From: a virus
Lineage: Duplodnaviria > Caudoviricetes
Length of the DNA stretch: 44,829 nt
Reading direction: 5' to 3' (one strand)
Virus record (IMG/VR): IMGVR_UViG_3300049983_000005
Location: 1 to 44,829 of that record
Position 1 is the first letter of the stretch. Each line of letters starts with the position of its first letter. The notes beneath the pieces were generated by a model that searched no databases, was not told the DNA's origin, and saw only the letters and a program-made list of their open reading frames with translations. Shown one piece after another: positions 2,862 through 44,829 of the stretch. The position numbers and the translations under genes were made by a program.

Positions 2862-3932
2862 TTAAGTTAATTGTACCGATTGAATCAATCCGCCCAGATT
2901 CCACGCGAGGTAGATTACGCCTCCGATGGTATCTTTATGAAAACCCCAGTCCTTGTCATTGGGAAACTGCGTGGTGGTTGGTCCGCTACCTACCGACGTG
3001 TATCCAAGAAAGCGCGCCGCGCCGACCGTAACAGGCTTCCCGCTCGCCATCGTGAGCCCCGCGCTGTCGAACTTCGCGATCTCGGCGCCCTGTAGCTGCA
3101 AGGACACCTTGTTCCCGCTTCCGAAAAAGGCATCGATCAGAATATCGCCCGTCGCCGTACTGTACGCGATCGGAAAGCCGGATGTGAACCCCGGATTGTT
3201 CCGATAGATGCCGCTGAGATTCGCGCCGGTGTCCGTCTTGAGGGATATATAGAAATTCGAGCTATTTTGATGACTCCGGATCTCACCGCCGCCGGCCGAT
3301 GCCCCGACCTCAAAGATCGCGCTTCCGTACTTCATGTCAGCACTATCAACCAAGCCAGTGCCGTTGAAATACGGGACACGGCCTGACGTGAAGCTTGTCG
3401 CGTTCGTTCCGCCGCGGGCGATCGGCAGCGTGCCGCTTTGCAGGTCCCCGGTATCGAGTGCGGTCCAGACAGGATCCGTCGCGACCCCCGCGCTTCCGGT
3501 CGATTTTAAATACTTTGGCGCTGATGTACCATTGCCGGCGAGACGCTTGTTCGAGCCGAACAGTCCGCCGTAAATAATATCGCCGCGCGTGGTTACCGGG
3601 GATAGCGAATCGAACGCCGCGATTTGGGTTGTCTGTCCGTGACCGCCATGGAGAAGGTCAACGGTCGGCAGATCATCAACTTCGAGACCGCGAAAGGTCG
3701 GAACACCGCTCGACCCATTCGGGGATCCATAAAATAGGTTTTGGCTTTGCGAGATCCGCGTAAAACTGAGCGCGGGCGTTGTGGTCGCCGTTGCTTCAGC
3801 GGTCGTGAACAGCGGCGAGAGGTCACCGGCGCTGAAGGATGTTACTCCGATCAACGCCAACGGCAATGTGTCCGCCGTTGGCAGCTCTTTGGTAAATCCC
3901 CCTACTGAAACTAATGGTCGTCTGGCTGTCAT
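2862..3932 (-). CDS. Tail fibre / receptor-binding protein
   Basis: Gly/Thr/Ser-rich; fibre motifs GVPTFR, TTRGDIIY, GTLPIARGGT; last structural position. Confidence 0.75.
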   Translation of the reverse strand: MTARRPLVSVGGFTKELPTADTLPLALIGVTSFSAGDLSPLFTTAEATATTTPALSFTRISQSQNLFYGSPNGSSGVPTFRGLEVDDLPTVDLLHGGHGQTTQIAAFDSLSPVTTRGDIIYGGLFGSNKRLAGNGTSAPKYLKSTGSAGVATDPVWTALDTGDLQSGTLPIARGGTNATSFTSGRVPYFNGTGLVDSADMKYGSAIFEVGASAGGGEIRSHQNSSNFYISLKTDTGANLSGIYRNNPGFTSGFPIAYSTATGDILIDAFFGSGNKVSLQLQGAEIAKFDSAGLTMASGKPVTVGAARFLGYTSVGSGPTTTQFPNDKDWGFHKDTIGGVIYLAWNLGGLIQSVQLT

Positions 3933-4603
3933 GCTATTTCAATTGTCGGCTGGGGCTCGAACTGCAAAGTTATATCGCTCGTTGCCTCGCCGATCTGTTG
4001 TTGAATGTTTCCCGACGCCGTTGGCGCGGTTGTTGTAATGCGTCCCGGAAGGGTTGCCGACAAAAAATAGGTCGCACCCGGCGCTAACCCGGTAAGCGCG
4101 GTAATCTGATTGCCCCCAAAATAAACCGTTCCCAGCATGCCGCTCAGGACCTCTTCATTTACAAAACCGACCGCTGGTTTTGTGTTATCGGCCGCGCTTG
4201 CCTTTCGTATCTTAGCCGTTCCGCCATCATCAAATATATTTACCAACCGGCCCGCGGCAATGTCCTCGCTGGCCTCCAGTACCAGCGTTCCAGATTCCGG
4301 CACGAGCCCGGGCGTATAGACCGCCTGGGCCATTTGCGCGAAGTCCGAGACGAAACTTTTACCATCACCGGTGATACTCGCCGCGAAGATCCGGACGCTG
4401 CGGCCTTTCGCATCAAACGGCGCCTGGAACGTCTCGCCGGCGCTTCCTCTGCCAAGCCATATCGGGTCCGTGGTTTCATCTTCAAAACGCCAATAGAGGT
4501 CCACAAAAGTAGAATCTACCGTTTCGGGCGTAAATCCCATCATTGCGAGAGTAAGCGCGAACGTCGCGCCTCCCTCATTGTTTCTTAAGGCAAGATCCGG
4601 CAT
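3929..4603 (-). CDS. Minor virion protein with C-terminal DUF2190/cement-like beta domain
   Basis: ASEDIAAGRLVNI...AVGFV...LTGLAPGATYFLS..G pattern; ATG 4603 next to the upstream stop. Confidence 0.65.
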   Translation of the reverse strand: MPDLALRNNEGGATFALTLAMMGFTPETVDSTFVDLYWRFEDETTDPIWLGRGSAGETFQAPFDAKGRSVRIFAASITGDGKSFVSDFAQMAQAVYTPGLVPESGTLVLEASEDIAAGRLVNIFDDGGTAKIRKASAADNTKPAVGFVNEEVLSGMLGTVYFGGNQITALTGLAPGATYFLSATLPGRITTTAPTASGNIQQQIGEATSDITLQFEPQPTIEIA

Positions 4604-4604
4604 C

Positions 4605-4859
4605 TTATGCAGTCGTTGTTTGCTGGGTCGAAAAGGCCCGGCCTTCAAAGTTTTCTACACGAAAGCGGATAACAGAGTCGGCGTCGAGGGAAACGGTACC
4701 GGCCGCAATATTCCCGGCGCCGTCCGTTGTGACGGTATCGATATCGGCCGCGCCGGCGACGTCCCAGATGATCACATCCACACCCGGGCCGACCGGCGAC
4801 ATTACTCCGGGCTCGCTTTCGTACGTAACGGGAAATCCTAAATAGTTTGAACTTGCCAT
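4605..4859 (-). CDS. Small minor tail protein
   Basis: Tightly packed 84-aa ORF in the tail operon, beta-rich. Confidence 0.65.
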   Translation of the reverse strand: MASSNYLGFPVTYESEPGVMSPVGPGVDVIIWDVAGAADIDTVTTDGAGNIAAGTVSLDADSVIRFRVENFEGRAFSTQQTTTA

Positions 4860-4863
4860 ATTT

Positions 4864-7485
4864 TTAACATGGGAAGATCGGCACGTTTACCACGCCGTCC
4901 TCGATCGTAATTGTCCCAAGAGTGAGGACGCAGCCGCCCCCGCCCCCACCTCCTCCACCACCCCCGCCTCCTCCGGTTGGGGCGTCAATAACTTCCTCGA
5001 AAGCTTCCATATATTCGACCGGATAGGCCTGGGCGGTGATCTTATAATGCAGATTGCCCTCGCGCTCCATCGACATGATACGAAAATGTTCGAACCCGTA
5101 TTTCTCATTCATCCGGGTATTGACAACCTTGATCACTTTGAATGGATGAAGGGCCAGAGTATCCAGAAACCACGCCTTAAACGTGATCTTTAGATTGTTC
5201 TGCAGTCCACCCTCGTTGAACTTTCCAAGGTCGAGAAACGCCCAGGAGAGCTTGATAGCATGAGCCTCGGAAACCACCCCGAGAAGCGATTCTTTCAGGA
5301 CATTCGTCTTCCGCGTATTATCCCCGGTCACGCGGCCGGCGCGGAGCTGCGCGTCGACGTCTTCAACCGGCGGGCAGGCAGTCTCGAGATAATTGTTTGT
5401 CTCGTCGTCAAAGGTCAGCTCAACGCGGTTTATAAGATCAAGGTCCGATATCCTGGACCAACGGAGCGTCGACCGCTCAACATCGTCCTCATCCTCGACG
5501 ATAATATTTCTGTCCGGGCCCTCATCCGTGAATACCGGGCAGGCCTCGAGCTCATCCTCTGTCAGCGCGCGCAGCGGTATGATATGGATCTTGCCGTTAA
5601 ACAGGAAGGGCCGCGACAACCTGCCGCCAAGGCACATATTTTCGATCTGCTCCTGGATCTTCTTCTCCTGCAGGTCGACGTCGGACTTGCCGCGGTAGTG
5701 TTCAAACTCATTCCCGTCGGAATCGGTGAAACGGACGTAGTCGGCCACCCAGTCCGCGGATTCTTTCCATGAGGTCTCGATCGCCAGGCGGTCGTAATCG
5801 TAGCCGTACCCCCATCGCTTATCCGTCATGAGCCGCGCGGTCTGCCAGGCCCGGTTACTCGTCGCGCCGGTCGTATAGGCCGCGTCATGCTGGAAGGCCT
5901 CGCCCGGTACTACCTCGAGAGATTGTGAAGCCGATTGCCAACTCATCACGCACCGCCAGGGCTGCGGGCCCGCTGCGACGCCCTGGACAAATTCAAGAAC
6001 GAATGGGTACCAGGTGTCGGCGGTCGCGTCGAAAGTGCCGCTATCTATGCCAACGTCCGCATTGTTGATAACCGTATCCCCGTCGATGATCAATTTCGCG
6101 CTGTCGTCATGGTCGACCGTGAGCGTGTGGGTTTCCGTGAACTCAAATTTAATGAACCCTTCCCACCGTATAGAGAACGCCGTAGGCGGGATCCCGGCCC
6201 GCGGCGAACCAAACCGGGTCGTGTAATTGATCGTTGAGTCTATCCTCGAGCTTTCAAAGTCGGTAAAGTCCGTTCCGACAAAGTACGATCCGAGAAGGCC
6301 CTCGCCTTCCTCGTTCCAGATCTTAATGTCCCGCAGGCCGCGGATGATCGCGTCACCCCGGGCGTCGTTTTGATCTACGTTCGCAGGATTGATCCACCCG
6401 AAGTTATAGCGAAGCAGAAACGTTCCTGAGTATCCGTGCGAAGTGACGGGCAATGAAACCGCAACTTGGCCGAGCTCGCCCAGCTTTTCGCTGTAATGAA
6501 CGGGGTCAGCTGCTTTCCTCTCGCTGCCAACGGTGAAAGCCGGATCCTGAATAGCTTCGATCGGACCCTCCCCGCCTTCGTAGATCGCTTCAAAGAACCC
6601 ATGGTTTGGGTCGCTGTTCACCGGGTGGCGCTGGAAGGCGAGGACCTTCATGTCATAAACCCGGCGCGTACCCATGACCACCCGCTTTGCATCCTTCAGA
6701 TTGGTCTCATTACCGGACGAGGTCGAAAAGGTGGGGCCGCCCGTGCTTTGCGTCCCGATCACCGTAGCTTCGATCGTCTGGTCGGAAAGGTGAAATAAAG
6801 GATCTATTCCGCGGGCGATGCAGTCGCCGGTGTTTCGCCTCGGGCAAAAATCAAAAAGGCCGTTGCCGATCGTACCGCCCAGCAGGTGTGAATTATCCGG
6901 ACAGCCGGCGTAGGCGCCGATCTCGTCTTGGGTTAAATTGAACGCCGGCGGGTAAACCGCTTGGCATGTTTGATAGTGGGCGCGGTGCGGCGCCCGGGAG
7001 TCCGCGCTCCGGAAACCCTGGACGGCCTTGACGGACACGAAATAGCCGTCGGCTTCGTCTTCAAGCTTTAGATGGGCTTCCCAGAAAGGAAGGAGCAGGC
7101 TGTCCAGCTCGTCTTCGAGAGTCCAGGTGAAATAATAATAAAAGGTGACCTTGATCCCCTCGCCGTGCAAAACCAAAAGGTCCGAGAACTCTCCGTCGCC
7201 GTCCCAGAATTTAAGCTCGGCCTCTTCATCCCCGATCGAGCCGTCGATCGTGACCGGCGTAAACCAATCCGGATCTCCATCGGGCATGAGCCGGGCCTCG
7301 ATCGGTGAGACGGCCGGCGCCGGATTCGCCACCTCGTCCGTCTTCATCACCGAATAATAGATCGTGCTTGTGGGTGCAGGCCATTCGATCTTGATCAGCT
7401 CGTAAACCTGCGGAGTTATATTAGCCGCGCGCAGGCTGCGCAGAATGTCGATCTTGTCTAATATTTCCGAGTCAAATTCAGGCAT
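4864..7485 (-). CDS. Tail tip / central hub protein with inserted PA14 domain and C-terminal poly-Gly
   Basis: Position after the Dit-like gene; SNRAW..LMTDKRWGYG and INRVELTFDD tail-tip motifs; PA14 signature (see findings); ATG 7485. Confidence 0.75.
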   Translation of the reverse strand: MPEFDSEILDKIDILRSLRAANITPQVYELIKIEWPAPTSTIYYSVMKTDEVANPAPAVSPIEARLMPDGDPDWFTPVTIDGSIGDEEAELKFWDGDGEFSDLLVLHGEGIKVTFYYYFTWTLEDELDSLLLPFWEAHLKLEDEADGYFVSVKAVQGFRSADSRAPHRAHYQTCQAVYPPAFNLTQDEIGAYAGCPDNSHLLGGTIGNGLFDFCPRRNTGDCIARGIDPLFHLSDQTIEATVIGTQSTGGPTFSTSSGNETNLKDAKRVVMGTRRVYDMKVLAFQRHPVNSDPNHGFFEAIYEGGEGPIEAIQDPAFTVGSERKAADPVHYSEKLGELGQVAVSLPVTSHGYSGTFLLRYNFGWINPANVDQNDARGDAIIRGLRDIKIWNEEGEGLLGSYFVGTDFTDFESSRIDSTINYTTRFGSPRAGIPPTAFSIRWEGFIKFEFTETHTLTVDHDDSAKLIIDGDTVINNADVGIDSGTFDATADTWYPFVLEFVQGVAAGPQPWRCVMSWQSASQSLEVVPGEAFQHDAAYTTGATSNRAWQTARLMTDKRWGYGYDYDRLAIETSWKESADWVADYVRFTDSDGNEFEHYRGKSDVDLQEKKIQEQIENMCLGGRLSRPFLFNGKIHIIPLRALTEDELEACPVFTDEGPDRNIIVEDEDDVERSTLRWSRISDLDLINRVELTFDDETNNYLETACPPVEDVDAQLRAGRVTGDNTRKTNVLKESLLGVVSEAHAIKLSWAFLDLGKFNEGGLQNNLKITFKAWFLDTLALHPFKVIKVVNTRMNEKYGFEHFRIMSMEREGNLHYKITAQAYPVEYMEAFEEVIDAPTGGGGGGGGGGGGGGCVLTLGTITIEDGVVNVPIFPC

Positions 7486-13914: not shown

Positions 13915-14796
13915 TTAGGCGTCTCGGTCATAGTAAATAATATCTATCTTAGCGGTGGTGCCAGGTAAGGATGCCCCGCCATAGGTAGCCGTCAATTCAT
14001 CCCCTGCGACACCTTGCCAAATAGATGTTTGGGCGGCACTTAAAGCGCCGGATAGGTGTACCGCAACGTGCTGAAAAGCCTCGCCTATATTTGCAATCGA
14101 GTTTGCATTTGAAATGCTGCCAATTAAATGAGCGCCAAGAGTTACCATTACATCTGAGTCCACGCCCGCAAGGTCAGAGCCGTCACCTCGCAATGCTAAG
14201 AATGTAAATACTCGCACCTTACCCGCAGGAACCGCCAGAACTAAAACTTGCGGGTCTCCGACGTTAAAATCAAAAGTCGCCGTCACTATACTTGGAGCAC
14301 TCAGAACCGCTTGCCACGAAACCAATAGTTCGGGGTGTGTCGGGTCAACCAGTTTAAACGTCTCCCTTGTGTCAACTTGGTAGACCTCCGCATTTTGGCT
14401 CAGACCCGTTAAAGCTAATCGGGCTGTTTGGTCTGCTACTGAGTTCGGAGGGCCGCCGCGCAACCCCGCAAGCGCGTTCGTAACCGTTGTCGCAAAAGCC
14501 GCATCGTCACCCAAAGCCGCCGCGAGTTCATTCAGGGTGTTCAAAGCACCGGGAGCGCCATCGAGCAAAGCCGTGACCGCCGCGTTGACCGCCGCGTTGA
14601 CCGCTGCTGTAATGTCCGCCGCTGCTGCCGCGCCGCTTGGATTCAAATAACCCAGATCGTTCCACGCGCCGGGGCCCGCCTTTATTTTTCCCGTATCCTT
14701 CTCGTAGCCCCAGACGAATTGCGGCAATGTCGGATTTTGCGCCGTCCAGTCGGCGGCGGTCATTCCGGGGTTAAGAAGTGATACGGGAAAGGGCAT
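13915..14796 (-). CDS. Putative head fibre with Mtd-like N-terminal domain
   Basis: TAADWTAQNPTL..WGYEKDTGKIKAG..AWNDLGY (Mtd/hyaluronidase-type N-terminus) plus LLDGAPGALNTLNELAAALGDDAAFATT fibre motif. Confidence 0.7.
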   Translation of the reverse strand: MPFPVSLLNPGMTAADWTAQNPTLPQFVWGYEKDTGKIKAGPGAWNDLGYLNPSGAAAAADITAAVNAAVNAAVTALLDGAPGALNTLNELAAALGDDAAFATTVTNALAGLRGGPPNSVADQTARLALTGLSQNAEVYQVDTRETFKLVDPTHPELLVSWQAVLSAPSIVTATFDFNVGDPQVLVLAVPAGKVRVFTFLALRGDGSDLAGVDSDVMVTLGAHLIGSISNANSIANIGEAFQHVAVHLSGALSAAQTSIWQGVAGDELTATYGGASLPGTTAKIDIIYYDRDA

Positions 14797-21827: not shown

Positions 21828-22300
21828 TTTAAGAATTTTTCATGGTTCGCGCGCAATTCCTTAAAAACCTTTTCCGTCGCTTCAGATAGTAATTTGGCCA
21901 TCTCGGCCTCGTCGCTCATTTTTGACAGACGTTTCGCTAAAGCTTTCGGCAGCTGCAAGGCGAGCTTCTTACGCAAGTTGCCGAAGATCTGATTTACCGC
22001 CTCCGCGCATTCGGCCGCAGAGATGAGCTCCCCGTTCTGCTGCTTGATCTTCATTTCGACAATAGTGGCCTCGCCGCGAAGCTTCCGGAGCCTTTCGGCA
22101 TCGAGCAAATTCTCCGGCGTTTTCAGCGCGATCTCTAAGGCGTCGTTCAAAACATAGAGTTTCTCTTTTTCCGTTGAAGACGGATCGCTTTCGATGCCGG
22201 CTGCTGCCAGTCGCTTGCGGATCGTCGCGCGGTCGAGCCCGAAGCGAACCTGCAGCTTTGAAATATTCAGAAATTTTACTGGTGCCTTTGTAGGTGTCAT
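21824..22300 (-). CDS. terS: Terminase small subunit (Nu1-like)
   Basis: N-terminal HTH (LNISKLQVRFGLDRATIRKRL), coiled coil ...GELI; overlaps the terL start. Confidence 0.85.
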   Translation of the reverse strand: MTPTKAPVKFLNISKLQVRFGLDRATIRKRLAAAGIESDPSSTEKEKLYVLNDALEIALKTPENLLDAERLRKLRGEATIVEMKIKQQNGELISAAECAEAVNQIFGNLRKKLALQLPKALAKRLSKMSDEAEMAKLLSEATEKVFKELRANHEKFLK

Positions 22301-22893
22301 TTCATAGAAGCCAGGGCTTTATTTATCCCTGCCCTAACGTTTGCGTTCAGTCGCCGGCTTAGAACCTTCTCGATCGGCTCGCGAAACGTGGACGCTTTCT
22401 TTATCCGCGCGCTCTGCTCGAGGTTGTAAAGAGCGACGATACTCGAGCGCTTGCCCTTGTATTTCCGCTGATAAAGCACGTCGCCGTGCGCGGTCCTGAC
22501 AACGAAGGTCCTCTTTCCGCGAAGCGCGGCCGGCCGCTGCCCGCGGGGGATGATCAGTTTCTTGTTTCTCCGGACGTTTTCAGTCGGGATGGCGAGCCGG
22601 CCGCCCTGGGCTTTTTTGGTCCCGCCGGTCTCGTGGAGCGCCAGCCAGTCCGCCCGGGTCCGGACCTCCGCGGTCATATCGTTTACTTTCGCGGGCTTGA
22701 TCTTGATGCCGAAGCGATTCCCCTGCTCAAACCATAGGCCGCGCAAGGTAAAAGCGCCACGGAGGGCACCGACAACTGCCGCTTGCCCCTGCTTCGCGGT
22801 GTCCGTTATACCCATCGCCGCGCCGAATTTGATGTTCTTTAAGATCTTATCGGCTGTCGGGGGTCGTTGAACTATGACTATTTTTGGAAACAT
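22297..22893 (-). CDS. gpZ-like minor tail / tail completion protein
   Basis: Very basic; L..HETGG.K and LAIP motifs; N- and C-terminal helices. Confidence 0.55.
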   Translation of the reverse strand: MFPKIVIVQRPPTADKILKNIKFGAAMGITDTAKQGQAAVVGALRGAFTLRGLWFEQGNRFGIKIKPAKVNDMTAEVRTRADWLALHETGGTKKAQGGRLAIPTENVRRNKKLIIPRGQRPAALRGKRTFVVRTAHGDVLYQRKYKGKRSSIVALYNLEQSARIKKASTFREPIEKVLSRRLNANVRAGINKALASMK

Positions 22894-23429: not shown

Positions 23430-23816
23430 CTATGCCCGGCTATCCAACACAACCTGCGCATCATCGTGTTCTCGCAGCATCTTCTCTGCCAGATCGGCGG
23501 CCGCCATATCACCGGCATTCTTTGTTTCGTTCGCCTTCCACCTGGACAGCTCTGCCACGAGCTTCAATTGAACCTTCATAGCTGAATTGACCAGACCATG
23601 AATTGTGTTGAGCTTTGCCGTTACCGCTACATCCGATTCTTTTAGGGCGGTCTTAACGTGCTCGACCTTGTCAGCCGCCTCCTGCTCTGCCCTTGCATGG
23701 CGCCTATCCGTCCTGATAGTGATGTAAGAGTTGACGAGGCCGACCATGACGGCCGCGATCCCTGTCAACGCTGTAGGGACGGCGATAATAAGGGCTATTT
23801 GTACTGCTTCGGTCAT
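23430..23816 (-). CDS. Holin-like membrane protein (N-terminal TM plus coiled coil)
   Basis: Hydrophobic residues ~6-32; IHGLVNSAM motif; last gene of the lysis cassette. Confidence 0.6.
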   Translation of the reverse strand: MTEAVQIALIIAVPTALTGIAAVMVGLVNSYITIRTDRRHARAEQEAADKVEHVKTALKESDVAVTAKLNTIHGLVNSAMKVQLKLVAELSRWKANETKNAGDMAAADLAEKMLREHDDAQVVLDSRA

Positions 23817-23822
23817 GCGGCT

Positions 23823-24479
23823 TCACTCTCCTTTTTCTATCTCGGCGATCGTCCACATCTTCCCGACCCATCCCAGAACGTTGCCCAGGTCGTCCTTATT
23901 GCAATAGGCTTCACATCTTACCGATACCACTGATTCATCAGGCCGGATGACACGGAAGCGGTCGCTGAAGTCCGTTCCGTCGCGTACCGACGACGCCCAG
24001 TTCGCGATCACACCTTCCCTGTAATGGCCATGTATGGAGTTCCGCCAGTTATAGCCCATGATCTGCTCCAACTTACGCCCCAGCATGGCGAGAAAGGCAC
24101 TATTCGCCCATAGGATCTGTCCCTTCATGTTAGCCTCAAAGAACGCGTCGTCGTCGCACTGCATGATGGCGCGCCTCGCGGCCGTCTCGGTGGCTATATG
24201 CGCCCTCAAGCTGTCGAGGTTCGCCCGAAGGTGGGTTATCTCTTCGACCACGGTCCCGCCGCCCTCGATACTGATCTGCTTTTCGATTCGGGCGATACTA
24301 TTCGGGAGATCAAAGAACCGGCCAATCCATTTACGGCACGCCTTAACCTGCTTATGACAATATTTCACATATCCCCAAAAGCCGCCGAGGGCCGTAATGA
24401 AGCCGGCTATCCACGGCCAGTATGCCGTTAACTTTGTGATCAGGTCCGGCTCGGGAGGGTTATCAAACATAGCTGTCAT
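23823..24479 (-). CDS. Membrane-anchored PAS-domain protein in the lysis cassette
   Basis: TM WPWIAGFITALGGFWGYV, coiled coil, full PAS-PAC (GQILWANSAFLAMLG..G.NW.NSIH...FRVIRPD...GNVLGWVG); no output domain. Confidence 0.85.
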   Translation of the reverse strand: MTAMFDNPPEPDLITKLTAYWPWIAGFITALGGFWGYVKYCHKQVKACRKWIGRFFDLPNSIARIEKQISIEGGGTVVEEITHLRANLDSLRAHIATETAARRAIMQCDDDAFFEANMKGQILWANSAFLAMLGRKLEQIMGYNWRNSIHGHYREGVIANWASSVRDGTDFSDRFRVIRPDESVVSVRCEAYCNKDDLGNVLGWVGKMWTIAEIEKGE

Positions 24480-25087
24480 ACAGAAGGCCTGGCGATTGGT
24501 ATCGGGATATCCCCGAAGCGAGGAACGCCCTCAGTGCGTGTGGAATTCGCCCCGAGCAGCGCCCTCAGTCCGGCGCCGGCGAGAACGCCCAGCACAATCT
24601 CGGCCGCCCTCTTTATCCCGCTCAGGATCTTCTGGAAAATGTTCTTTTTCGGCTTCACGAGCTGCAGCTGCATCCAGGCGATAAAATCCTGCTGGATCTT
24701 GATCATCCCCTGTAGGAGAAGCTCGAGCTGCTTATGCGCGTCGATCTCCTGGTTCTTGATGGCGATCACCCTATCGAAGCTGCCGACCAGGACCGTCGTG
24801 ACGGCGCGCTCGGCCTTGCTCGCCCCTTGCGCCTCGGCAGCCTTTACCGCGGCTTCCCGCAGCGCTACGACCTCGTCAAAAGCCCTATTCGTATCGTCGA
24901 TGTAGGACTGGTCGACCACGACCGGATCTTTAACATCCCGGGGAACTGGGATAAGCCTTGCACCGGGCTCTGTTTGCCCGCTCGAGGTTTGAATTAGCGT
25001 AATTAGCATTGCGTACAGCATCAGCATTACGCCGAGCCTCGTCCGCAGCTTCGTTTTTGGTATTGGTATCCGATTTTGCTGCCTCAT
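24476..25087 (-). CDS. Exported coiled-coil protein overlapping the i-spanin (o-spanin position, no lipobox)
   Basis: AGGAAGGA SD and ATG 25087; basic N-region plus hydrophobic segment; C-terminal amphipathic/hydrophobic helix. Confidence 0.6.
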   Translation of the reverse strand: MRQQNRIPIPKTKLRTRLGVMLMLYAMLITLIQTSSGQTEPGARLIPVPRDVKDPVVVDQSYIDDTNRAFDEVVALREAAVKAAEAQGASKAERAVTTVLVGSFDRVIAIKNQEIDAHKQLELLLQGMIKIQQDFIAWMQLQLVKPKKNIFQKILSGIKRAAEIVLGVLAGAGLRALLGANSTRTEGVPRFGDIPIPIARPSV

Positions 25088-25352
25088 GGTCCTTCCTGTT
25101 CTCCTCGAGGATCGCGCTCTGCGCCGCGTCCTCTTTTTCCAGCTCATGGATCGCGCCCTCCTGGGCTTTAATGGCCTCGCCCTGGGCGTTTACATTCGCT
25201 TGGTGCTGGCGCATCGTTTTATTGGTAAAGAAGCCGTCGGTGCCGTTGAAAAAGGCGGCCAGCAGCGCGCAAATGATAATGAAGGCCAAAACAAAAGCGC
25301 CTATTGCAATGAGCCACCGATATTCGACCGAAAGGTTTTTCCAGAATTTCAT
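24930..25352 (-). CDS. i-spanin (Rz)-like protein
   Basis: N-terminal TM followed by a long coiled coil, terminal Cys pair; ATG 25352. Confidence 0.65.
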   Translation of the reverse strand: MKFWKNLSVEYRWLIAIGAFVLAFIIICALLAAFFNGTDGFFTNKTMRQHQANVNAQGEAIKAQEGAIHELEKEDAAQSAILEENRKDHEAAKSDTNTKNEAADEARRNADAVRNANYANSNLERANRARCKAYPSSPGC

Positions 25353-25366
25353 TTTCGCCTTCTCTT

Positions 25367-25585
25367 TTATGCTTTCGCGATTTTTGCCCGCCGCTTGAGT
25401 TCCCGCTGCGCTCCCCACTCGAGAAAGCTGCTCGAGCTCTGTTCCCAAACCGGGCGGGTGAGCAGCTTCCGAAGGCGCTTTGTGCTGGTCGATCGGTAAA
25501 ACTTCGTGTTTTGCAGGTAATAAACTCGCGCCCGGGCCTTAACGACATCGTAGAGCTTGATCTTTTTGATTTTCTTTTTGCTCAT
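25367..25585 (-). CDS. Small basic hypothetical protein
   Basis: ATG overlaps the upstream TGA (ATGA); Lys/Arg-rich. Confidence 0.55.
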   Translation of the reverse strand: MSKKKIKKIKLYDVVKARARVYYLQNTKFYRSTSTKRLRKLLTRPVWEQSSSSFLEWGAQRELKRRAKIAKA

Positions 25586-25830
25586 GTTGCGAAAAACCCT
25601 TGCCACTGCGGGGCGGTATCGCGGTAAGCGTAAGCCTTGAGCCGTCGCCAACCGTAGCCAATACTATTGATAATCCCGAAACTTCCGCCCAGGCCGATGA
25701 GAAAAAACAAGGCAGCCGGGACGCCGACCGGAATGATCAAGAGACAGCAAATCGCGAGCAAAAACTTATCCCGTACTTGTGCTAAAAAACTCCGATAGTT
25801 GTCGAAAAAGAATCTAAGAATGTCTCTCAT
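25582..25830 (-). CDS. Small membrane protein (holin/antiholin candidate)
   Basis: AAGGA SD; ~35-residue hydrophobic stretch; directly after the endolysin gene. Confidence 0.6.
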   Translation of the reverse strand: MRDILRFFFDNYRSFLAQVRDKFLLAICCLLIIPVGVPAALFFLIGLGGSFGIINSIGYGWRRLKAYAYRDTAPQWQGFFAT

Positions 25831-25911: not shown

Positions 25912-27084
25912 CTACGACCTGCGGACGACCGTATAACCCAACGCCTCGTATTCGGCCAGCTTGCTTTTCTCGATGACCTGTACCGTGTCCGCGGTCGCGT
26001 TACTGGCGATAAGTTGATTTGTCCGAATACGGCCGACAATCCATCTTCCCCAAGGCAAGACCTTTTCAACCACGAAATGGTATCCGACCCAAATTGCCAG
26101 CCCGACAATTACCGTCCAAAAGATAAAGCGCCAAGTCTCCGCTGATAACCCTAACGCCTGCGCCTGTTGAGCCTTTTCGATGGCGGTATTGGTCGTCACT
26201 CCGCCGCCGAGGGCGGCCATGACCTTTGTGTATAACGCGCCTAAGAATCCTTTCGGCTTTTCCGCTACAGGTTCGGATTCTTTCTCGATAACGACGTCGG
26301 TCTTGTTTGGAGCTGATGGCAGCGGATCGGCACCTGCCTCTCCACTGGCGGGGACGTGGATAAGATCGTCGTCCAGCCCGTTCGGATCTTCGACGTTCGG
26401 GCTTTCCGCGGCTGCAGGGATATCCACGTTCGGATAATCATGTTCCTCATTTGCTTTCGAGATGGCCGGTGCCGATAGTTTGCCCGAAATGTCGTCAGCA
26501 GTTAGTATCCAGTCGGTTGGGATCGCCGCTTTTCCGCGTCGAAAATACTGCTGCCGTTCCGTCCACTGGTTTGGGTTTCCCGTCTTTCTGTTTCGCCCGT
26601 TGATACGAACGTGGTAGGTTTTCAGATCACCGACATCGGCATAGCCGTTGAGCTTCTTATAGCCGTTAACGAACCATCCCGCCGAGTCCGTCGCATAGGG
26701 CTCAAGCGCGAGTTTTTCTGGCTCTTTGACGAAATCAACGAACGGAAGATGTTTGGAGTTTCTGAGATATTCGGTATATGCCTCGTAGACATCGCGCCCG
26801 GTCAGCTGGATCCTGCCTCGGCCTTTGAACCGCCGACCATCGCCCTTCTGAGTGTTGCCCAGATCGCGCCGGCCCTCGTATGCCGCGCCTGACGCGATCT
26901 CTTCCTGGTACTTCAACTCACCGGATTCGATCGCGAGCGCGGACAGCCATGCCTGAATACGCCGGGCCGTGGTAATTTTGTATGCCAGTGCCACCATCAT
27001 CAGGACCGGTAACGCTGCTTTGATTCTCGCAGTCGGCGCGTAAGGCATGATCGTCTTCACCATTTCAACCGTTAGTTTTGCCAT
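25912..27084 (-). CDS. Endolysin, glycoside hydrolase family 19, with C-terminal membrane segment
   Basis: ESGELKY.EE, YEGRRDLGNTQKGDG..FKGRG.IQLTGR, SAGWF, RING; acidic Pro linker; TM FIFWTVIVGLAIWVGYHFVV. Confidence 0.92.
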   Translation of the reverse strand: MAKLTVEMVKTIMPYAPTARIKAALPVLMMVALAYKITTARRIQAWLSALAIESGELKYQEEIASGAAYEGRRDLGNTQKGDGRRFKGRGRIQLTGRDVYEAYTEYLRNSKHLPFVDFVKEPEKLALEPYATDSAGWFVNGYKKLNGYADVGDLKTYHVRINGRNRKTGNPNQWTERQQYFRRGKAAIPTDWILTADDISGKLSAPAISKANEEHDYPNVDIPAAAESPNVEDPNGLDDDLIHVPASGEAGADPLPSAPNKTDVVIEKESEPVAEKPKGFLGALYTKVMAALGGGVTTNTAIEKAQQAQALGLSAETWRFIFWTVIVGLAIWVGYHFVVEKVLPWGRWIVGRIRTNQLIASNATADTVQVIEKSKLAEYEALGYTVVRRS

Positions 27085-30702: not shown

Positions 30703-31722
30703 TCATGCTTTTACGGTTTGCTTCGCCTCCTGGTGTTTACACTTCGATTTGCGCGGGACCTTGTTAACGACGATCGTTATCCAGCCGAAGCCCTCCCGGC
30801 AGGCGTCGCAATAGGTCGGTTTATGACCGTTGCCGTTCGAGGCCGGCGCCGCGGCTTTTTCCTTTGCCAGCCAGCCCTTGATCTCCTTCAGGATCGTCGC
30901 AATCGTAACGGGCCCTTTCCGCCAGCTGATCTGTGAGGCGTGGGTAGTAGCGAATTTGTAAAATGCCTCGACCTCGCTCAGCAGGATCCCTTCGTCGAGC
31001 AGCCACTCGATCTGCTTTTCGAAAACGGGATCGGTATCAGGAGGGCAGCTGCCCGGACCGTGCGATTTTTCCCACCAGGTCCTGAAGTTTTTGGCGTAGC
31101 CTCTGAAGGTCGCCGAAGGCTCCACACACACACCTTTTTTGCTCTTGTGTGTGTTTAAATCTTCTGAAGAAGAAGTCTTAACTCTTAAGGAATGATTTGG
31201 ATTTTTCTCCAAATGGTCAGTAGTGTTTTGCTGGTTACCATTTGGATTTTTCTCCAAATGGTCTTTGGATTTTTCTCCAAATGCATTTGGATTTTTCTCC
31301 AAATGGTCAGGTGCTTCTACAGGCTGCCCGGCCGATATAAATTCGAGGTATTTTTTGTCTAAAAAGTCGTAGTCGATCCGGTGATATTTCGTCATATCCC
31401 CGGTGTTTTTGTGCGGCTGTTTAGCAATCAAATACCCGTTGGTTTCGAGCCACTGAAGGTGCTTACTGACCGTATCGCCGGAGACCTTCCCGCTCTTCTT
31501 GTTCGTGGTTTTCCAGAAGGTGAAGTGGTCCTCTACCCACTCGCGCGCCGAGTTGTAGATATATTTCTCGCCCTCGATCATCACCCCCCCACGTTTCTGC
31601 GACCAAAGGTAATGAATCTGCTGAAGAACGATCGCGCGGGGCAGGCCGATCAGGCACGCCAGCGAGGGAAGCACCTGGAGCGGCGTTTCGTTTATGAGTA
31701 GTTTTGAGTGTTCGTTTATCAC
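30703..31722 (-). CDS. Phage replication initiator
   Basis: KLLINETPLQVLPSLA..IGL..AIVLQQIHY..YNS..EW...F.FW N-terminal wHTH; internal iterons. Confidence 0.85.
   Translation of the reverse strand: MINEHSKLLINETPLQVLPSLACLIGLPRAIVLQQIHYLWSQKRGGVMIEGEKYIYNSAREWVEDHFTFWKTTNKKSGKVSGDTVSKHLQWLETNGYLIAKQPHKNTGDMTKYHRIDYDFLDKKYLEFISAGQPVEAPDHLEKNPNAFGEKSKDHLEKNPNGNQQNTTDHLEKNPNHSLRVKTSSSEDLNTHKSKKGVCVEPSATFRGYAKNFRTWWEKSHGPGSCPPDTDPVFEKQIEWLLDEGILLSEVEAFYKFATTHASQISWRKGPVTIATILKEIKGWLAKEKAAAPASNGNGHKPTYCDACREGFGWITIVVNKVPRKSKCKHQEAKQTVKA
31196..31305. repeat. Four 20-bp iterons (phage replication origin)
   Basis: TTTGGATTTTTCTCCAAATG at 31196, 31241, 31264 and 31286. Confidence 0.85.
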
Positions 31723-32642
31723 TATTTGGTGGTCGGTACGAATTTCCCTTTTTCATCCAGCCGGTACCAGGCGAACGCTTTAAGCTTTCCACCAGAGCCT
31801 TTTTCGTCACTGGTTTCTGCGCACTTCATTTCGTACCGCTGCTCTTTTTCGTTCCACCAGGCGAGGGCGATACATCCGTACTCGCCGGCCATCCCTTTGC
31901 CTTGGTAACCTGTGACGATCGCGGCGGAGGCCTTACCGGTAGCCGACGATGCCGATCTGTCGCCGGTAGCCGACGATGCCGAGCTGTAGCCGGTAGCCGA
32001 CGATGCCGAGCTGTCGCCGGTAGCCGACGATGCCGATCTGTCGCCGGTAGCCGACGATGCCGAGCTGTAGCCGGTAGCCGACGATGCCGATCTGTCGCCG
32101 GTAGCCGACGATGCCGAGCTGTCGCCGGTAGCCGACGATGCCGAGCTGTCGCCGGTAGCCGACGATGCCGAGCTGTAGCCGGTAGCCGACGATGCCGAGC
32201 TGTCGCCGGTAGCCGACGATTCGCCATCCGCGAAATGTTCAACCCACTTTTTCTGCCCGTCCAGGATGAACATCATTGCGCCGTACCAGTCACCCTTATA
32301 GCGCAGGATCCCGGTCTTGAATTTACATTTTTGGTCACCGCCGACATTCCCGGTTATATCCCCGGGCTTGACACCATAGACCTGCCACAGGCCGTCATTC
32401 CAGTCCGGCTCCTTTCCATCGCCTAAACCCATTCCCCAGGGCCAGCCATGGATACCCCCGCCGCAAACCGGTTCCGGGTCCCAATGCGGCTCAATTACCG
32501 CTTCGCCGACCTCCATCGGGTGCTGAAAGCTGTTGAACGATTTTCCGTCTGCATTGGAAAAACGCAGTATCAGGACCTCGCCGTCCTCATTTACCCATTG
32601 ATGAACGGGCGTCTTAATTTTGGGTGTAGGTTTTTTAGCCAT
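31722..32642 (-). CDS. Phage protein with nonapeptide Ser/Ala/Thr/Gly repeats (probable beta-solenoid)
   Basis: CGGGIHGW N-domain; (SSATG[D/Y][S/R]SA)x10; C-terminal LKAFAWYRLDEKGKFV. Confidence 0.8.
   Translation of the reverse strand: MAKKPTPKIKTPVHQWVNEDGEVLILRFSNADGKSFNSFQHPMEVGEAVIEPHWDPEPVCGGGIHGWPWGMGLGDGKEPDWNDGLWQVYGVKPGDITGNVGGDQKCKFKTGILRYKGDWYGAMMFILDGQKKWVEHFADGESSATGDSSASSATGYSSASSATGDSSASSATGDSSASSATGDRSASSATGYSSASSATGDRSASSATGDSSASSATGYSSASSATGDRSASSATGKASAAIVTGYQGKGMAGEYGCIALAWWNEKEQRYEMKCAETSDEKGSGGKLKAFAWYRLDEKGKFVPTTK
31936..32220. repeat. 27-bp tandem repeat, 10.5 copies
   Basis: CCGGTAGCCGACGATGCCGA[G/T]CTGT[C/A]G units, contiguous. Confidence 0.95.
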
Positions 32643-43505: not shown

Positions 43506-43724
43506 ATGGATGCAGTAACAGACGCCCCGCGCGTCAAACTTATCAAAATAGAGGATGCGGCCGAACTCGTCGGCTGCGACGTTTCAGTGATCAATTCACT
43601 GGTAAAGGAATCGCGCTCGAACGGCTTTCCGTCTGCTCGCTTCGGCCCGCGGACGATCCGCATAGACGAAAACAGACTGATCGATTGGATTATTAACGGC
43701 GGTCTTGATGGCGTCAATAGTTAA
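43506..43724 (+). CDS. Excisionase-like HTH protein
   Basis: LIKIEDAAELVGC...FPSARFGPRTIRID..L.DWI; overlaps the integrase start. Confidence 0.85.
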   Translation: MDAVTDAPRVKLIKIEDAAELVGCDVSVINSLVKESRSNGFPSARFGPRTIRIDENRLIDWIINGGLDGVNS

Positions 43725-44829
43725 AAAAGGTGAAAGGAAATATCTGATCCGCGTAAGTAAAGGAACCGGGAATGACCGGATGTTCCTTAACAAGACTTTC
43801 CGTGGCACTCTCGCCGACGCTCGAGCGGAAGGCCGGCGCCTTGAAACCCTAGTCGATTCCGACCACTCACCCCTGGAGATCACGCTGACAGTCGAGAAGG
43901 CCGTCGAGTTCTGGTTGGGTGCCGTCAAGCCTAAGATCGCCGATCGGACGCATAACGGGTACCAGGAATATTTGAGGCGTTACCTTCTCGCCACGGTCGG
44001 CCGTAAACTTCTGGCCGACGTTAAGACCTACCACATTCAAACTATTTATATTGATTTGTCGACCCGATTGTCGGCAACCACGGTCCGCAACCTTCACCGC
44101 GTACTGACGGCCTTCTTCGGCTACATGGTTCGGAAACAATATCTAAAACAGGACCCGTCGAAAGGTGTGGATCTTCCAGCGAAGCATAGAAAAGAAATGA
44201 CCGTCCTGACCGAGGCCGAGGCCGCGCGGTTGATCGAAGCATGCCAGACAGCTCGGAATGGGGCCGTCTTCTACTTTGCGCTCGAGACCGGAATGCGGCC
44301 CGAGGAATACCTAGCGCTTCGCTGGCGGGATATCGACTTTCAAAAGAATACAGTGTCGGTTGATCGCGCCGTTTCGTTTTACCGGCAAGGCGGGGGATTT
44401 TATTTCACGGAACCGAAAACCGCAAAATCGCGGCGGCTGATCCAGATCTCCGGCAACTTACGCAACCGCCTCATGGAACACCGCCGGGAGCAGAACGAAC
44501 AGCGGTTAGCTTCGAAATTATCGTACGAGGCGTTAGACCTGGTTTTTGCAAACGAGGTCGGAAGGCCGTTCGCGATAAATAATTTAACGCGGCGCTATCT
44601 GGCACCCATTTTGACCGGGCTGGATCTCGGCAAGCATATTACGCTCTATTCTCTCCGGCACTCCTGCGCGACCCTGCTCTTGATGCTTGGCGAGAATCCG
44701 AAAGTAGTCGCTGATCGACTCGGTCATAGCTCTGTTACACTGACCCTGGATACCTACTCGCACGTCCTGCCGCATATCCAGGAGGCGGCGACGGCGAAGC
44801 TGGATAACGTTTTGAGGATGAAAAGATGA
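43708..44829 (+). CDS. int: Tyrosine integrase
   Basis: TGMRPEE, PKT, YSLRHS, RLGHSS, LDTYSH catalytic motifs; N-terminal arm-binding region. Confidence 0.97.
   Translation: MASIVKKGERKYLIRVSKGTGNDRMFLNKTFRGTLADARAEGRRLETLVDSDHSPLEITLTVEKAVEFWLGAVKPKIADRTHNGYQEYLRRYLLATVGRKLLADVKTYHIQTIYIDLSTRLSATTVRNLHRVLTAFFGYMVRKQYLKQDPSKGVDLPAKHRKEMTVLTEAEAARLIEACQTARNGAVFYFALETGMRPEEYLALRWRDIDFQKNTVSVDRAVSFYRQGGGFYFTEPKTAKSRRLIQISGNLRNRLMEHRREQNEQRLASKLSYEALDLVFANEVGRPFAINNLTRRYLAPILTGLDLGKHITLYSLRHSCATLLLMLGENPKVVADRLGHSSVTLTLDTYSHVLPHIQEAATAKLDNVLRMKR

Follow-up and report, generated by a model that had tools for sequence, protein, structure and literature searches.

Lysis timing sets the burst size of a phage, and the locus described here raises the question of whether a phage protein could adjust that timing to the state of its host from the cytoplasmic side of the membrane. 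In the window (the whole stretch of viral DNA that was analysed, 44,829 nt long), a sequence-only reading had picked out an ORF of 218 aa, which it described as a membrane-anchored PAS protein with no output domain, and had proposed that it is a holin or antiholin whose triggering is set by a host signal.

The window carries the genome of a lambda-like temperate phage: its minus strand encodes terminase, portal, head and tail proteins, and there are also genes for a DnaB helicase and an integrase. Its recA gene finds its best matches, at 90% identity, in MAGs of the Pyrinomonadaceae (6 of the 64 parts of GTDB were scanned), which makes a Blastocatellia acidobacterium of this family the probable host. 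The 218-aa protein is found on a contig of up to 473 kb as well, which is consistent with an integrated prophage. The features that we refer to are the following.

1-1035, at the start of the record: recA gene, 90% identical to Pyrinomonadaceae RecA
13915-14796 and 31722-32642 (minus strand): two ORFs with repetitive, probably collagen-like stretches, with tail-fibre PHROG matches and SclA/SclB NCBIfam matches
22297-22893, minus strand: tail-completion/minor-tail-like gene (phrog_1924, phrog_27), directly before the small terminase and far from the tail genes
23430..23816, minus strand: 128-aa one-helix/coiled-coil protein, phage-type, outside the conserved PAS module
23823..24479, minus strand: TM-helix-PAS protein of 218 aa, or 215 if it starts at Met4; a likely one-helix lysis regulator with a predicted cytoplasmic PAS
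23844..24152, minus strand: its PAS domain, residues about 110-212 (Pfam, NCBIfam, Foldseek, VIA-align)
24243..24278, minus strand: diverged E[LF]xPNGGSS[LM]RD turn, residues 68-79 (profile alignment; helix break 70-76 in the model)
24366..24428, minus strand: predicted membrane helix, residues about 18-38, with an acidic segment before it and a K/R-rich segment after it
24476..25087, minus strand: 203-aa protein with a signal-peptide-like start, a helical body, a hydrophobic C-terminal segment and no Cys
24930..25352, minus strand: Rz-like inner-membrane spanin candidate, 140 aa (phrog_214, E 1.8e-5)
25367..25585, minus strand: 72-aa basic ORF without membrane helix, ATGA-coupled to the 82-aa gene, without Pfam or PHROG match
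25582..25830, minus strand: 82-aa hydrophobic protein directly after the endolysin (Kyte-Doolittle 2.75), without significant Pfam or PHROG match
25912..27084, minus strand: endolysin with a chitinase/GH19-like N-terminal domain and a C-terminal hydrophobic helix (phrog_9506, E 2e-37; phrog_14712, E 4e-26)
43705-44829, at the end of the record: tyrosine integrase

Read along the minus strand, the late region runs endolysin, 82-aa protein, 72-aa protein, Rz-like protein, 203-aa protein, 218-aa PAS protein, 128-aa protein, two more genes and the terminases. A promoter and terminator scan stayed at chance level, none of the sequencing runs listed as carriers is of RNA, and no output gene (HisKA/HATPase, GGDEF) adjoins the PAS gene. 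The hydrophobic helix of the endolysin spans residues about 321-343. At the locus of the closest relative, L001, the same slot (3784-5103), ahead of the Rz-like, 203-aa and PAS genes, is filled by an unrelated 439-aa protein without family match that likewise ends in hydrophobic segments; membrane anchoring of the endolysin at its C terminus may be common in such phages. The sequence-only reading had put the PAS gene at the holin position, and this placement does not hold: the gene comes after the spanin-like pair, and the ORF that directly follows the endolysin, and is by position the holin candidate, is the hydrophobic one of 82 aa.

The proposed translational coupling of the PAS gene to the spanin-like genes stands in part. 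Its 4-nt overlap (ATGA) with the upstream 203-aa gene is real, and the first gene of the pair is Rz-like. The 203-aa protein, whose gene overlaps the Rz-like gene by 158 nt, has no match in Pfam or PHROG and, since it contains no cysteine, is not a canonical lipoprotein o-spanin; it may be a non-lipoprotein partner (outer spanin) of the Rz-like protein. Proteins that begin like a signal peptide and end in a hydrophobic tail recur beside Rz-like genes, in the phage studied (24476-25087, minus strand) as in L001 (5393-5977), L093 (967-1386, minus strand) and L090 (41084-41452). Cysteine is wholly absent from the proteins of this type in the phage studied and in L001, and gp095 of Cellulophaga phage phi18:3 has the layout of the 203-aa protein.

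The product of the 128-aa gene had been read as a second TM/coiled-coil protein. A one-helix/coiled-coil protein does follow the PAS gene, but it starts 6 nt past the stop of that gene and has its own ribosome-binding-like site. We discarded a partnership with the PAS protein as a conserved feature because the gene lies outside the block shared with L001, where an unrelated protein takes its place. In the unrelated phage of L002 (5753-6393), a 40% homologue of the 128-aa protein comes behind a 77-aa two-helix protein, right after a portal-like gene, and the 7 kb read around it show no PAS gene.

Fold and membrane anchor of the PAS protein

Database entries start the protein at Met4, which gives 215 aa. 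It matches Pfam PAS_3 with E 1e-11, PAS_9, PAS and PAS_4 above the cut-off, and TIGR00229. The AlphaFold2 model (mean pLDDT 83.5, and 93-97 across the PAS) consists of helices at residues 13-56, 58-69 and 77-108, with a break at 70-76, followed by the PAS strands within 112-210. Foldseek retrieves PAS/LOV structures with this model (E 2.6e-8), and VIA-align gives a Z of 15.4 (rmsd 2.9, 121 aligned); a search of PDB sequences gave nothing significant (best E 0.024). Pfam, NCBIfam, the AlphaFold2 model and the two fold searches agree that the protein belongs to the PAS domain superfamily, whose fold is a five-stranded sheet with helices at its flanks. The chain stops about 6 residues past the PAS and has no kinase or cyclase domain, and Pfam and NCBIfam scans found neither a HisKA/HATPase nor a GGDEF output domain. 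The observation first made from the letters is borne out, in that a single membrane helix and a long helix precede a complete PAS and no output domain follows; the structure model, which had been suggested as a check, confirms the fold.

The membrane helix is weakly hydrophobic in the 218-aa protein (Kyte-Doolittle maximum 1.16) and stronger in the family, where the mean is 1.69 and the value is at least 1.5 in 37 of the 54 aligned rows. Because K and R are commoner after the helix than before it in 52 of the 54, the protein is predicted to lie N-out/C-in, with a cytoplasmic PAS. The charge bias of the family thus supports a topology that had been proposed from the basic residues of this one protein. 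A homodimer prediction scored 0.06, which speaks neither for nor against a dimer.

LOV photosensors have an NCRF-type flavin-binding cysteine motif. This motif occurs in 0 of the 54 rows, which have an invariant Trp145 at that position, and a LOV photosensor was rejected on this ground. No cofactor motif is conserved among the 54 rows and no His or Cys is invariant, His150 being kept in 27 and Cys193 in 34. The best-kept PAS residues (G120, N126, W145, R154 and G206) lie within the generic PAS_3 signature.

Relatives, selection and gene neighbourhoods

A word search yielded 15 full-length relatives with 33-70% identity, and the best 150 HMMER matches include 23 representatives of 212-236 aa (50% clustering, the PAS protein itself counted). 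Long signalling proteins among these best 150 align only from profile position 70 or later, and so not with the membrane module. Longer fused forms at E <= 1e-25 were absent from the 7999 scored candidates, which is weak evidence. Full-length members occur in 2 of 401 genomes of the family, and a sample of 401 from the order, which overlaps with these, added 1; the remaining matches in these samples are PAS domains inside long host frames. Neither tblastn of the PAS protein and one relative against cultured phages nor GTDB pattern scans returned anything, and one candidate, L006, was dropped as a chance match.

The PAS protein and its closest relative, L001, are 46% identical in residues 4-60 and 87% identical in the PAS, for which dN is 0.069 and dS 1.37 (dN/dS about 0.05). 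The PAS is under purifying selection, and the gene is maintained. Likeness to L001 at the DNA level is confined to 23822-25283, which holds the Rz-like, 203-aa and PAS genes, and the flanking structural genes differ completely. These three genes move between unrelated phages as one block, with the 128-aa gene outside it. Further searching for this Rz-like gene, with or without a PAS gene beside it, led back to loci already known. The order recurs in the distant locus L093, from a Pyrinomonadaceae genome, where an Rz-like gene and a gene for a protein with a signal peptide come before a distantly related TM-PAS gene. Upstream of the PAS gene lie, in L007 at 2.5 kb, a LysM protein with an endolysin PHROG match and a 57-aa two-helix protein and, in L151 at 4.5 kb, an amidase accompanied by a two-helix protein of 83 aa; at each of these two loci the PAS gene is the last in a run of same-strand genes. 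The short contigs L100 and L003 have a membrane protein upstream of the PAS gene. On L100 (G166:C180) the start of the 81-aa small membrane gene is present twice upstream of the PAS gene, with an opposite-strand HNH-like ORF between the copies.

Viral contigs scanned with a generic PAS_3 motif gave 45 loci, 40 of which have the TM-helix-PAS layout (32 with a called membrane helix, 7 with a weaker aromatic segment and 1 cut by the contig end). The other five were dropped: in two the PAS protein is multi-domain or partial, in two it lacks an N-terminal helix, and one is a chance match. Stand-alone phage PAS proteins of 151-159 aa without N-terminal membrane helix are encoded at L126 (3797-4252) and L127 (3782-4261). 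The 40 loci fall into 20 clusters at 60% identity, and the ESM Atlas holds viral clusters of 187-229 aa with a PAS (scores 0.97-0.99), the top ones almost purely viral. TM-PAS proteins are a large phage family, which dominates the PAS-motif matches in viral contigs. Two proteins, P0149 and P0122 (396 and 385 aa), have the helix-PAS unit doubled in tandem behind one membrane helix, again with no output domain. FastTree distributes the phage PAS domains over five groups, without support. An IQ-TREE of 57 PAS domains (27 of 54 phage rows and 30 of 123 host rows) gathers every phage row on the same side of a weakly supported branch (52/88) and, from the PAS domains alone, nests that of the 218-aa protein among carriers of the PNGGSS turn described below.

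The expected linkage of phage homologues to endolysins applies to part of this family: an HMM-identified endolysin lies within 0.9 kb in 6 of the 20 clusters (11 of the 40 loci), but 14 clusters have no recognised endolysin within 3.3 kb. The relatives adjoin six kinds of endolysin, with lysozyme at L119 and L150, NlpC/P60 at L118, SLT at L142, M15 or CHAP at L140 and L113, and CHAP at L134; L113 and L140 belong to one cluster and have different endolysins alongside (CHAP-like and M15 peptidase). At an assumed chance rate of 9-12%, the adjacency has P 0.007-0.026. The endolysin identities rest on HMM scans, because the local tally was queried in part with these same proteins. In one cluster a T7 gp18-like small terminase comes immediately after the TM-PAS gene, which thus has the place of the holin gene in T7, and a small unassigned membrane protein is adjacent or near in 5 of the 20 (L108, L111, L137, L125, L131). 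For eight clusters the 3-4 kb read give no sign of a lysis context (L106, L107, L112, L124, L128, L130, L132, L136); among them, the L128 gene has a ribonucleotide reductase subunit on one side and a Mom-like gene on the other.

Two cultured Cellulophaga phages probably encode PAS-like folds: gp090 of phi18:3 (L090 39102-39620) lies two genes before a GH108 endolysin, and gp108 of phi19:1 (L091 6203-6925) follows a weak holin-family match, with a lysozyme 1.5 kb on. Both were tied to their PAS-like Foldseek matches (172 and 240 aa) by protein length, which makes the UniProt-to-gene match presumptive, and neither has a PAS match in Pfam.

The N-terminal module and its PAS-less relatives

The turn E[LF]xPNGGSS[LM]RD between two helices is found in 15 of the 20 TM-PAS clusters (at least 25 bits with a small-protein HMM). 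A scan for the PNGGSS motif gave at least 120 loci, the estimated total being 430. A motif ORF is present at 98 of the 120, and in 96 cases it encodes a PAS-less one-helix protein, nearly always of 63-112 aa. An endolysin-like ORF lies within 2 kb in 25 of the 30 PAS-less loci that have a 2 kb flank (7 of 12 clusters), often adjoined by a small two-helix gene. Most of these ORFs are called endolysin-like by way of phrog_32486, which is annotated as unknown and has weak VanY matches; the rest are called by CHAP, M15 and amidase matches. PAS-less relatives in cultured phages are annotated as holin or membrane protein, and an endolysin or holin gene adjoins them in 3 of 4 actinophage records (P1312, mu1/6, TurkishDelight); Laroye has no annotated endolysin within 2.5 kb. 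The product of P1312_040 from the Thermobifida phage (L273 2408-2851), annotated as "sensory protein kinase CreC", is a PAS-less PNGGSS one-helix protein whose gene overlaps an amidase gene.

Aligned by hhalign, the N-terminal profile of the clade of the 218-aa protein (36 rows) matches that of 25 PAS-less one-helix proteins at 95.5%, with a score of 46.8 (maximum of 37.0 in 60 column-shuffled controls). The N-terminal half of the 218-aa protein alone reaches 93.4% against the broad TM-PAS family and 53% against the small family. Its kinship to the small family rests on profiles, because the lone sequence is not significant on the small-protein HMM (4.1 bits, with 30 of 300 shuffles as high); the PNGGSS/phrog_9869 module is found at profile level and in 5 of the 5 broad-family N termini scanned. 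By these comparisons, the N-terminal half of the PAS protein is related, at profile level, to the PAS-less one-helix proteins of lysis cassettes.

Possible roles and comparison with known systems

The reading that we prefer, to which we give an even chance, is that the PAS protein is a one-helix lysis regulator, holin-like or holin-activating, that is tuned through its PAS. The lysis role proposed at the outset gains from the kinship of the N-terminal module to lysis-cassette proteins, the joint travel with the spanin-like genes and the variety of endolysins beside relatives, and it loses from the eight clusters without lysis context. Sensing by the PAS is suggested by the fold and by selection on the fold. 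The protein would be made late from the lysis operon and would build up in the inner membrane, N terminus outward. There its helix and membrane segment would favour or enable the opening of holes, either unaided or together with another small membrane protein (the 82-aa ORF), as has been proposed for the LysF1b-LysF1a pair discussed below. There is no C-terminal output, and any signal would therefore have to run towards the membrane end; in the most speculative step, a ligand or partner on the PAS would shift the long helix 77-108, so that triggering is advanced or delayed.

A broader proposal, possible and put forward with some doubt, is that such proteins make up a widespread class of phage lysis regulators, so far undescribed, in which a one-helix lysis module of long standing acquired a cytoplasmic PAS that reads a metabolite, redox or energy signal in many hosts and sets the moment of lysis by signalling from the PAS to the membrane helix. 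The best-ranked matches listed in a literature search, with subscription journals mostly outside it, included no described PAS-bearing phage holin or lysis protein. T4-type lysis inhibition is a known signal input and reads superinfection from the periplasm. If our preferred reading is true, a PAS at the cytoplasmic face of such a regulator would couple the time of lysis directly to the physiology of the host. The family offers natural versions of one module with and without PAS, and the question is testable because the form without PAS exists in cultured phages (Laroye, mu1/6), as does, probably, a PAS-like fold within a lysis cassette (Cellulophaga phi18:3, phi19:1).

The PAS of a lysis protein might also sense nothing and act as a dimerisation, stabilising or protein-docking domain of a constitutive holin or holin activator, which we regard as rather unlikely. 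The missing LOV motif, the partial conservation of His150 and Cys193 and the generic signature of the best-kept residues would suit such a domain, and PAS-less relatives are common, so that the module manages without a PAS; on the other hand, the PAS is more constrained than the anchor, and it is kept across at least 20 divergent clusters and doubled in P0149 and P0122, which shows importance, not role. Alternatively, the protein could be a decoy or modulator of host signalling, that is, a kinase-like front end that pairs late in infection with a host sensor kinase or cyclase and takes no direct part in lysis. Its PAS does resemble those of host multi-PAS signalling proteins, with an NCBIfam match to a PnpS-type kinase over residues 75-206 (E 5e-4), and besides the eight clusters without lysis neighbours there are two loci, L124 and L132, where the gene is opposite in strand to its neighbours. 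We think this role unlikely, as the long proteins among the best 150 matches do not align with the membrane module, that module matches phage lysis-cassette proteins, and the top ESM Atlas clusters are almost purely viral.

Some other late or accessory function at the membrane, such as superinfection exclusion or the tethering of packaging or assembly to the membrane, would fit the terminase or portal genes that adjoin or lie near the TM-PAS gene in L106, L119, L147 and the phage studied, and the position after virion genes in L107, L112 and L130. However, lysis genes often occupy these places too, near terminase or portal genes or after virion genes in lambda- and T7-like genomes, and the gene moves with the spanin-like genes while the flanking structural genes differ completely; we consider such a function improbable. 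That the ORF is a functionless remnant of a truncated host sensor kinase, as a PAS without output and a weakly hydrophobic anchor might suggest, is largely refuted by the low dN/dS of the PAS, the 23 full-length representatives among the best 150 matches and the conserved length and layout, and it has very little probability left.

The regulator of lysis that we prefer can be compared with four kinds of known protein. The soluble domain of T4 holin T is GAF-like, and the sequence-only reading had drawn on T as a precedent. The analogy fails on topology: in the portion of PMC11413866 available to us, the folded domain of T is described as periplasmic (N-in/C-out) and T as controlled by a separate antiholin (RI/RIII, lysis inhibition), whereas the PAS is predicted to be cytoplasmic. 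The two proteins share a single membrane pass and a folded soluble domain, and signal-regulated timing is a feature of T. T-like class III holins appear among the Foldseek results as weak matches (E 0.043 and 0.23), and a T-type class III holin with a periplasmic domain was rejected, as C-in is predicted in 52 of the 54 rows. Phage Mu gp25 releasin (DUF2730), according to the part of PMC9239132 consulted, is a membrane-tethered cytoplasmic lysis protein with one N-terminal helix that acts on SAR endolysins. The PAS protein has the same single N-terminal helix and is predicted to be tethered and cytoplasmic in the same way; releasin differs in having no PAS and a SAR endolysin as partner, whereas the main hydrophobic helix of the endolysin here is C-terminal, and the PAS protein has no DUF2730 match.

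The PNGGSS proteins (phrog_9869, phrog_15431; Arthrobacter phage Laroye gp72, Streptomyces phage mu1/6 gp52, Thermobifida P1312_040) have, at profile level, a homologous membrane-helix-turn-helix module. They differ from the PAS protein in having no PAS, and their "holin" and "membrane protein" labels are annotation.

The closest parallel in architecture is LysF1b of mycobacteriophages (Girr gp35, NBJ gp33; Pfam DUF2746), which the accessible text of PMC13056207 describes as having one N-terminal TMD, N-out/C-in, with basic residues behind it and a charged helix, and as needed for efficient lysis and a proposed activator of its two-helix partner LysF1a. In the supplement text files of that paper, where alignments may be pictures, no PNGGSS-type motif was found. 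Like LysF1b and its homologue LysA2b, the PAS protein has about 20 residues ahead of its N-terminal membrane helix and basic residues past it, a predicted N-out/C-in topology and a long charged helix on the predicted cytoplasmic side (33% DEKRH, against 30-50% reported for LysF1b/LysA2b in the parts of the sources seen). LysF1b and LysA2b, so far as those parts go, resemble TM-PAS proteins also in being often paired with a small two-helix protein and in that they can lie away from lysin genes. They differ in having no PAS, in their length (88-150 aa) and in their actinobacterial hosts, the host of the PAS protein being probably an acidobacterium. Neither the PAS protein nor 11 TM-PAS or 15 PAS-less relatives match DUF2746, and D29 gp30 (LysA2b) reaches 3% against the clade profile and 44% against the small PAS-less family in hhalign. 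For these reasons we suggest that the PAS protein works like LysF1b and LysA2b, by architectural likeness, and not that it is a member of their family. LysA2b, as described in the portion of bioRxiv 10.64898/2026.08.27.747656 available, is effective although its gene lies at a distance from those of the lysins, and this weakens the objection from unlinked TM-PAS loci without removing it.
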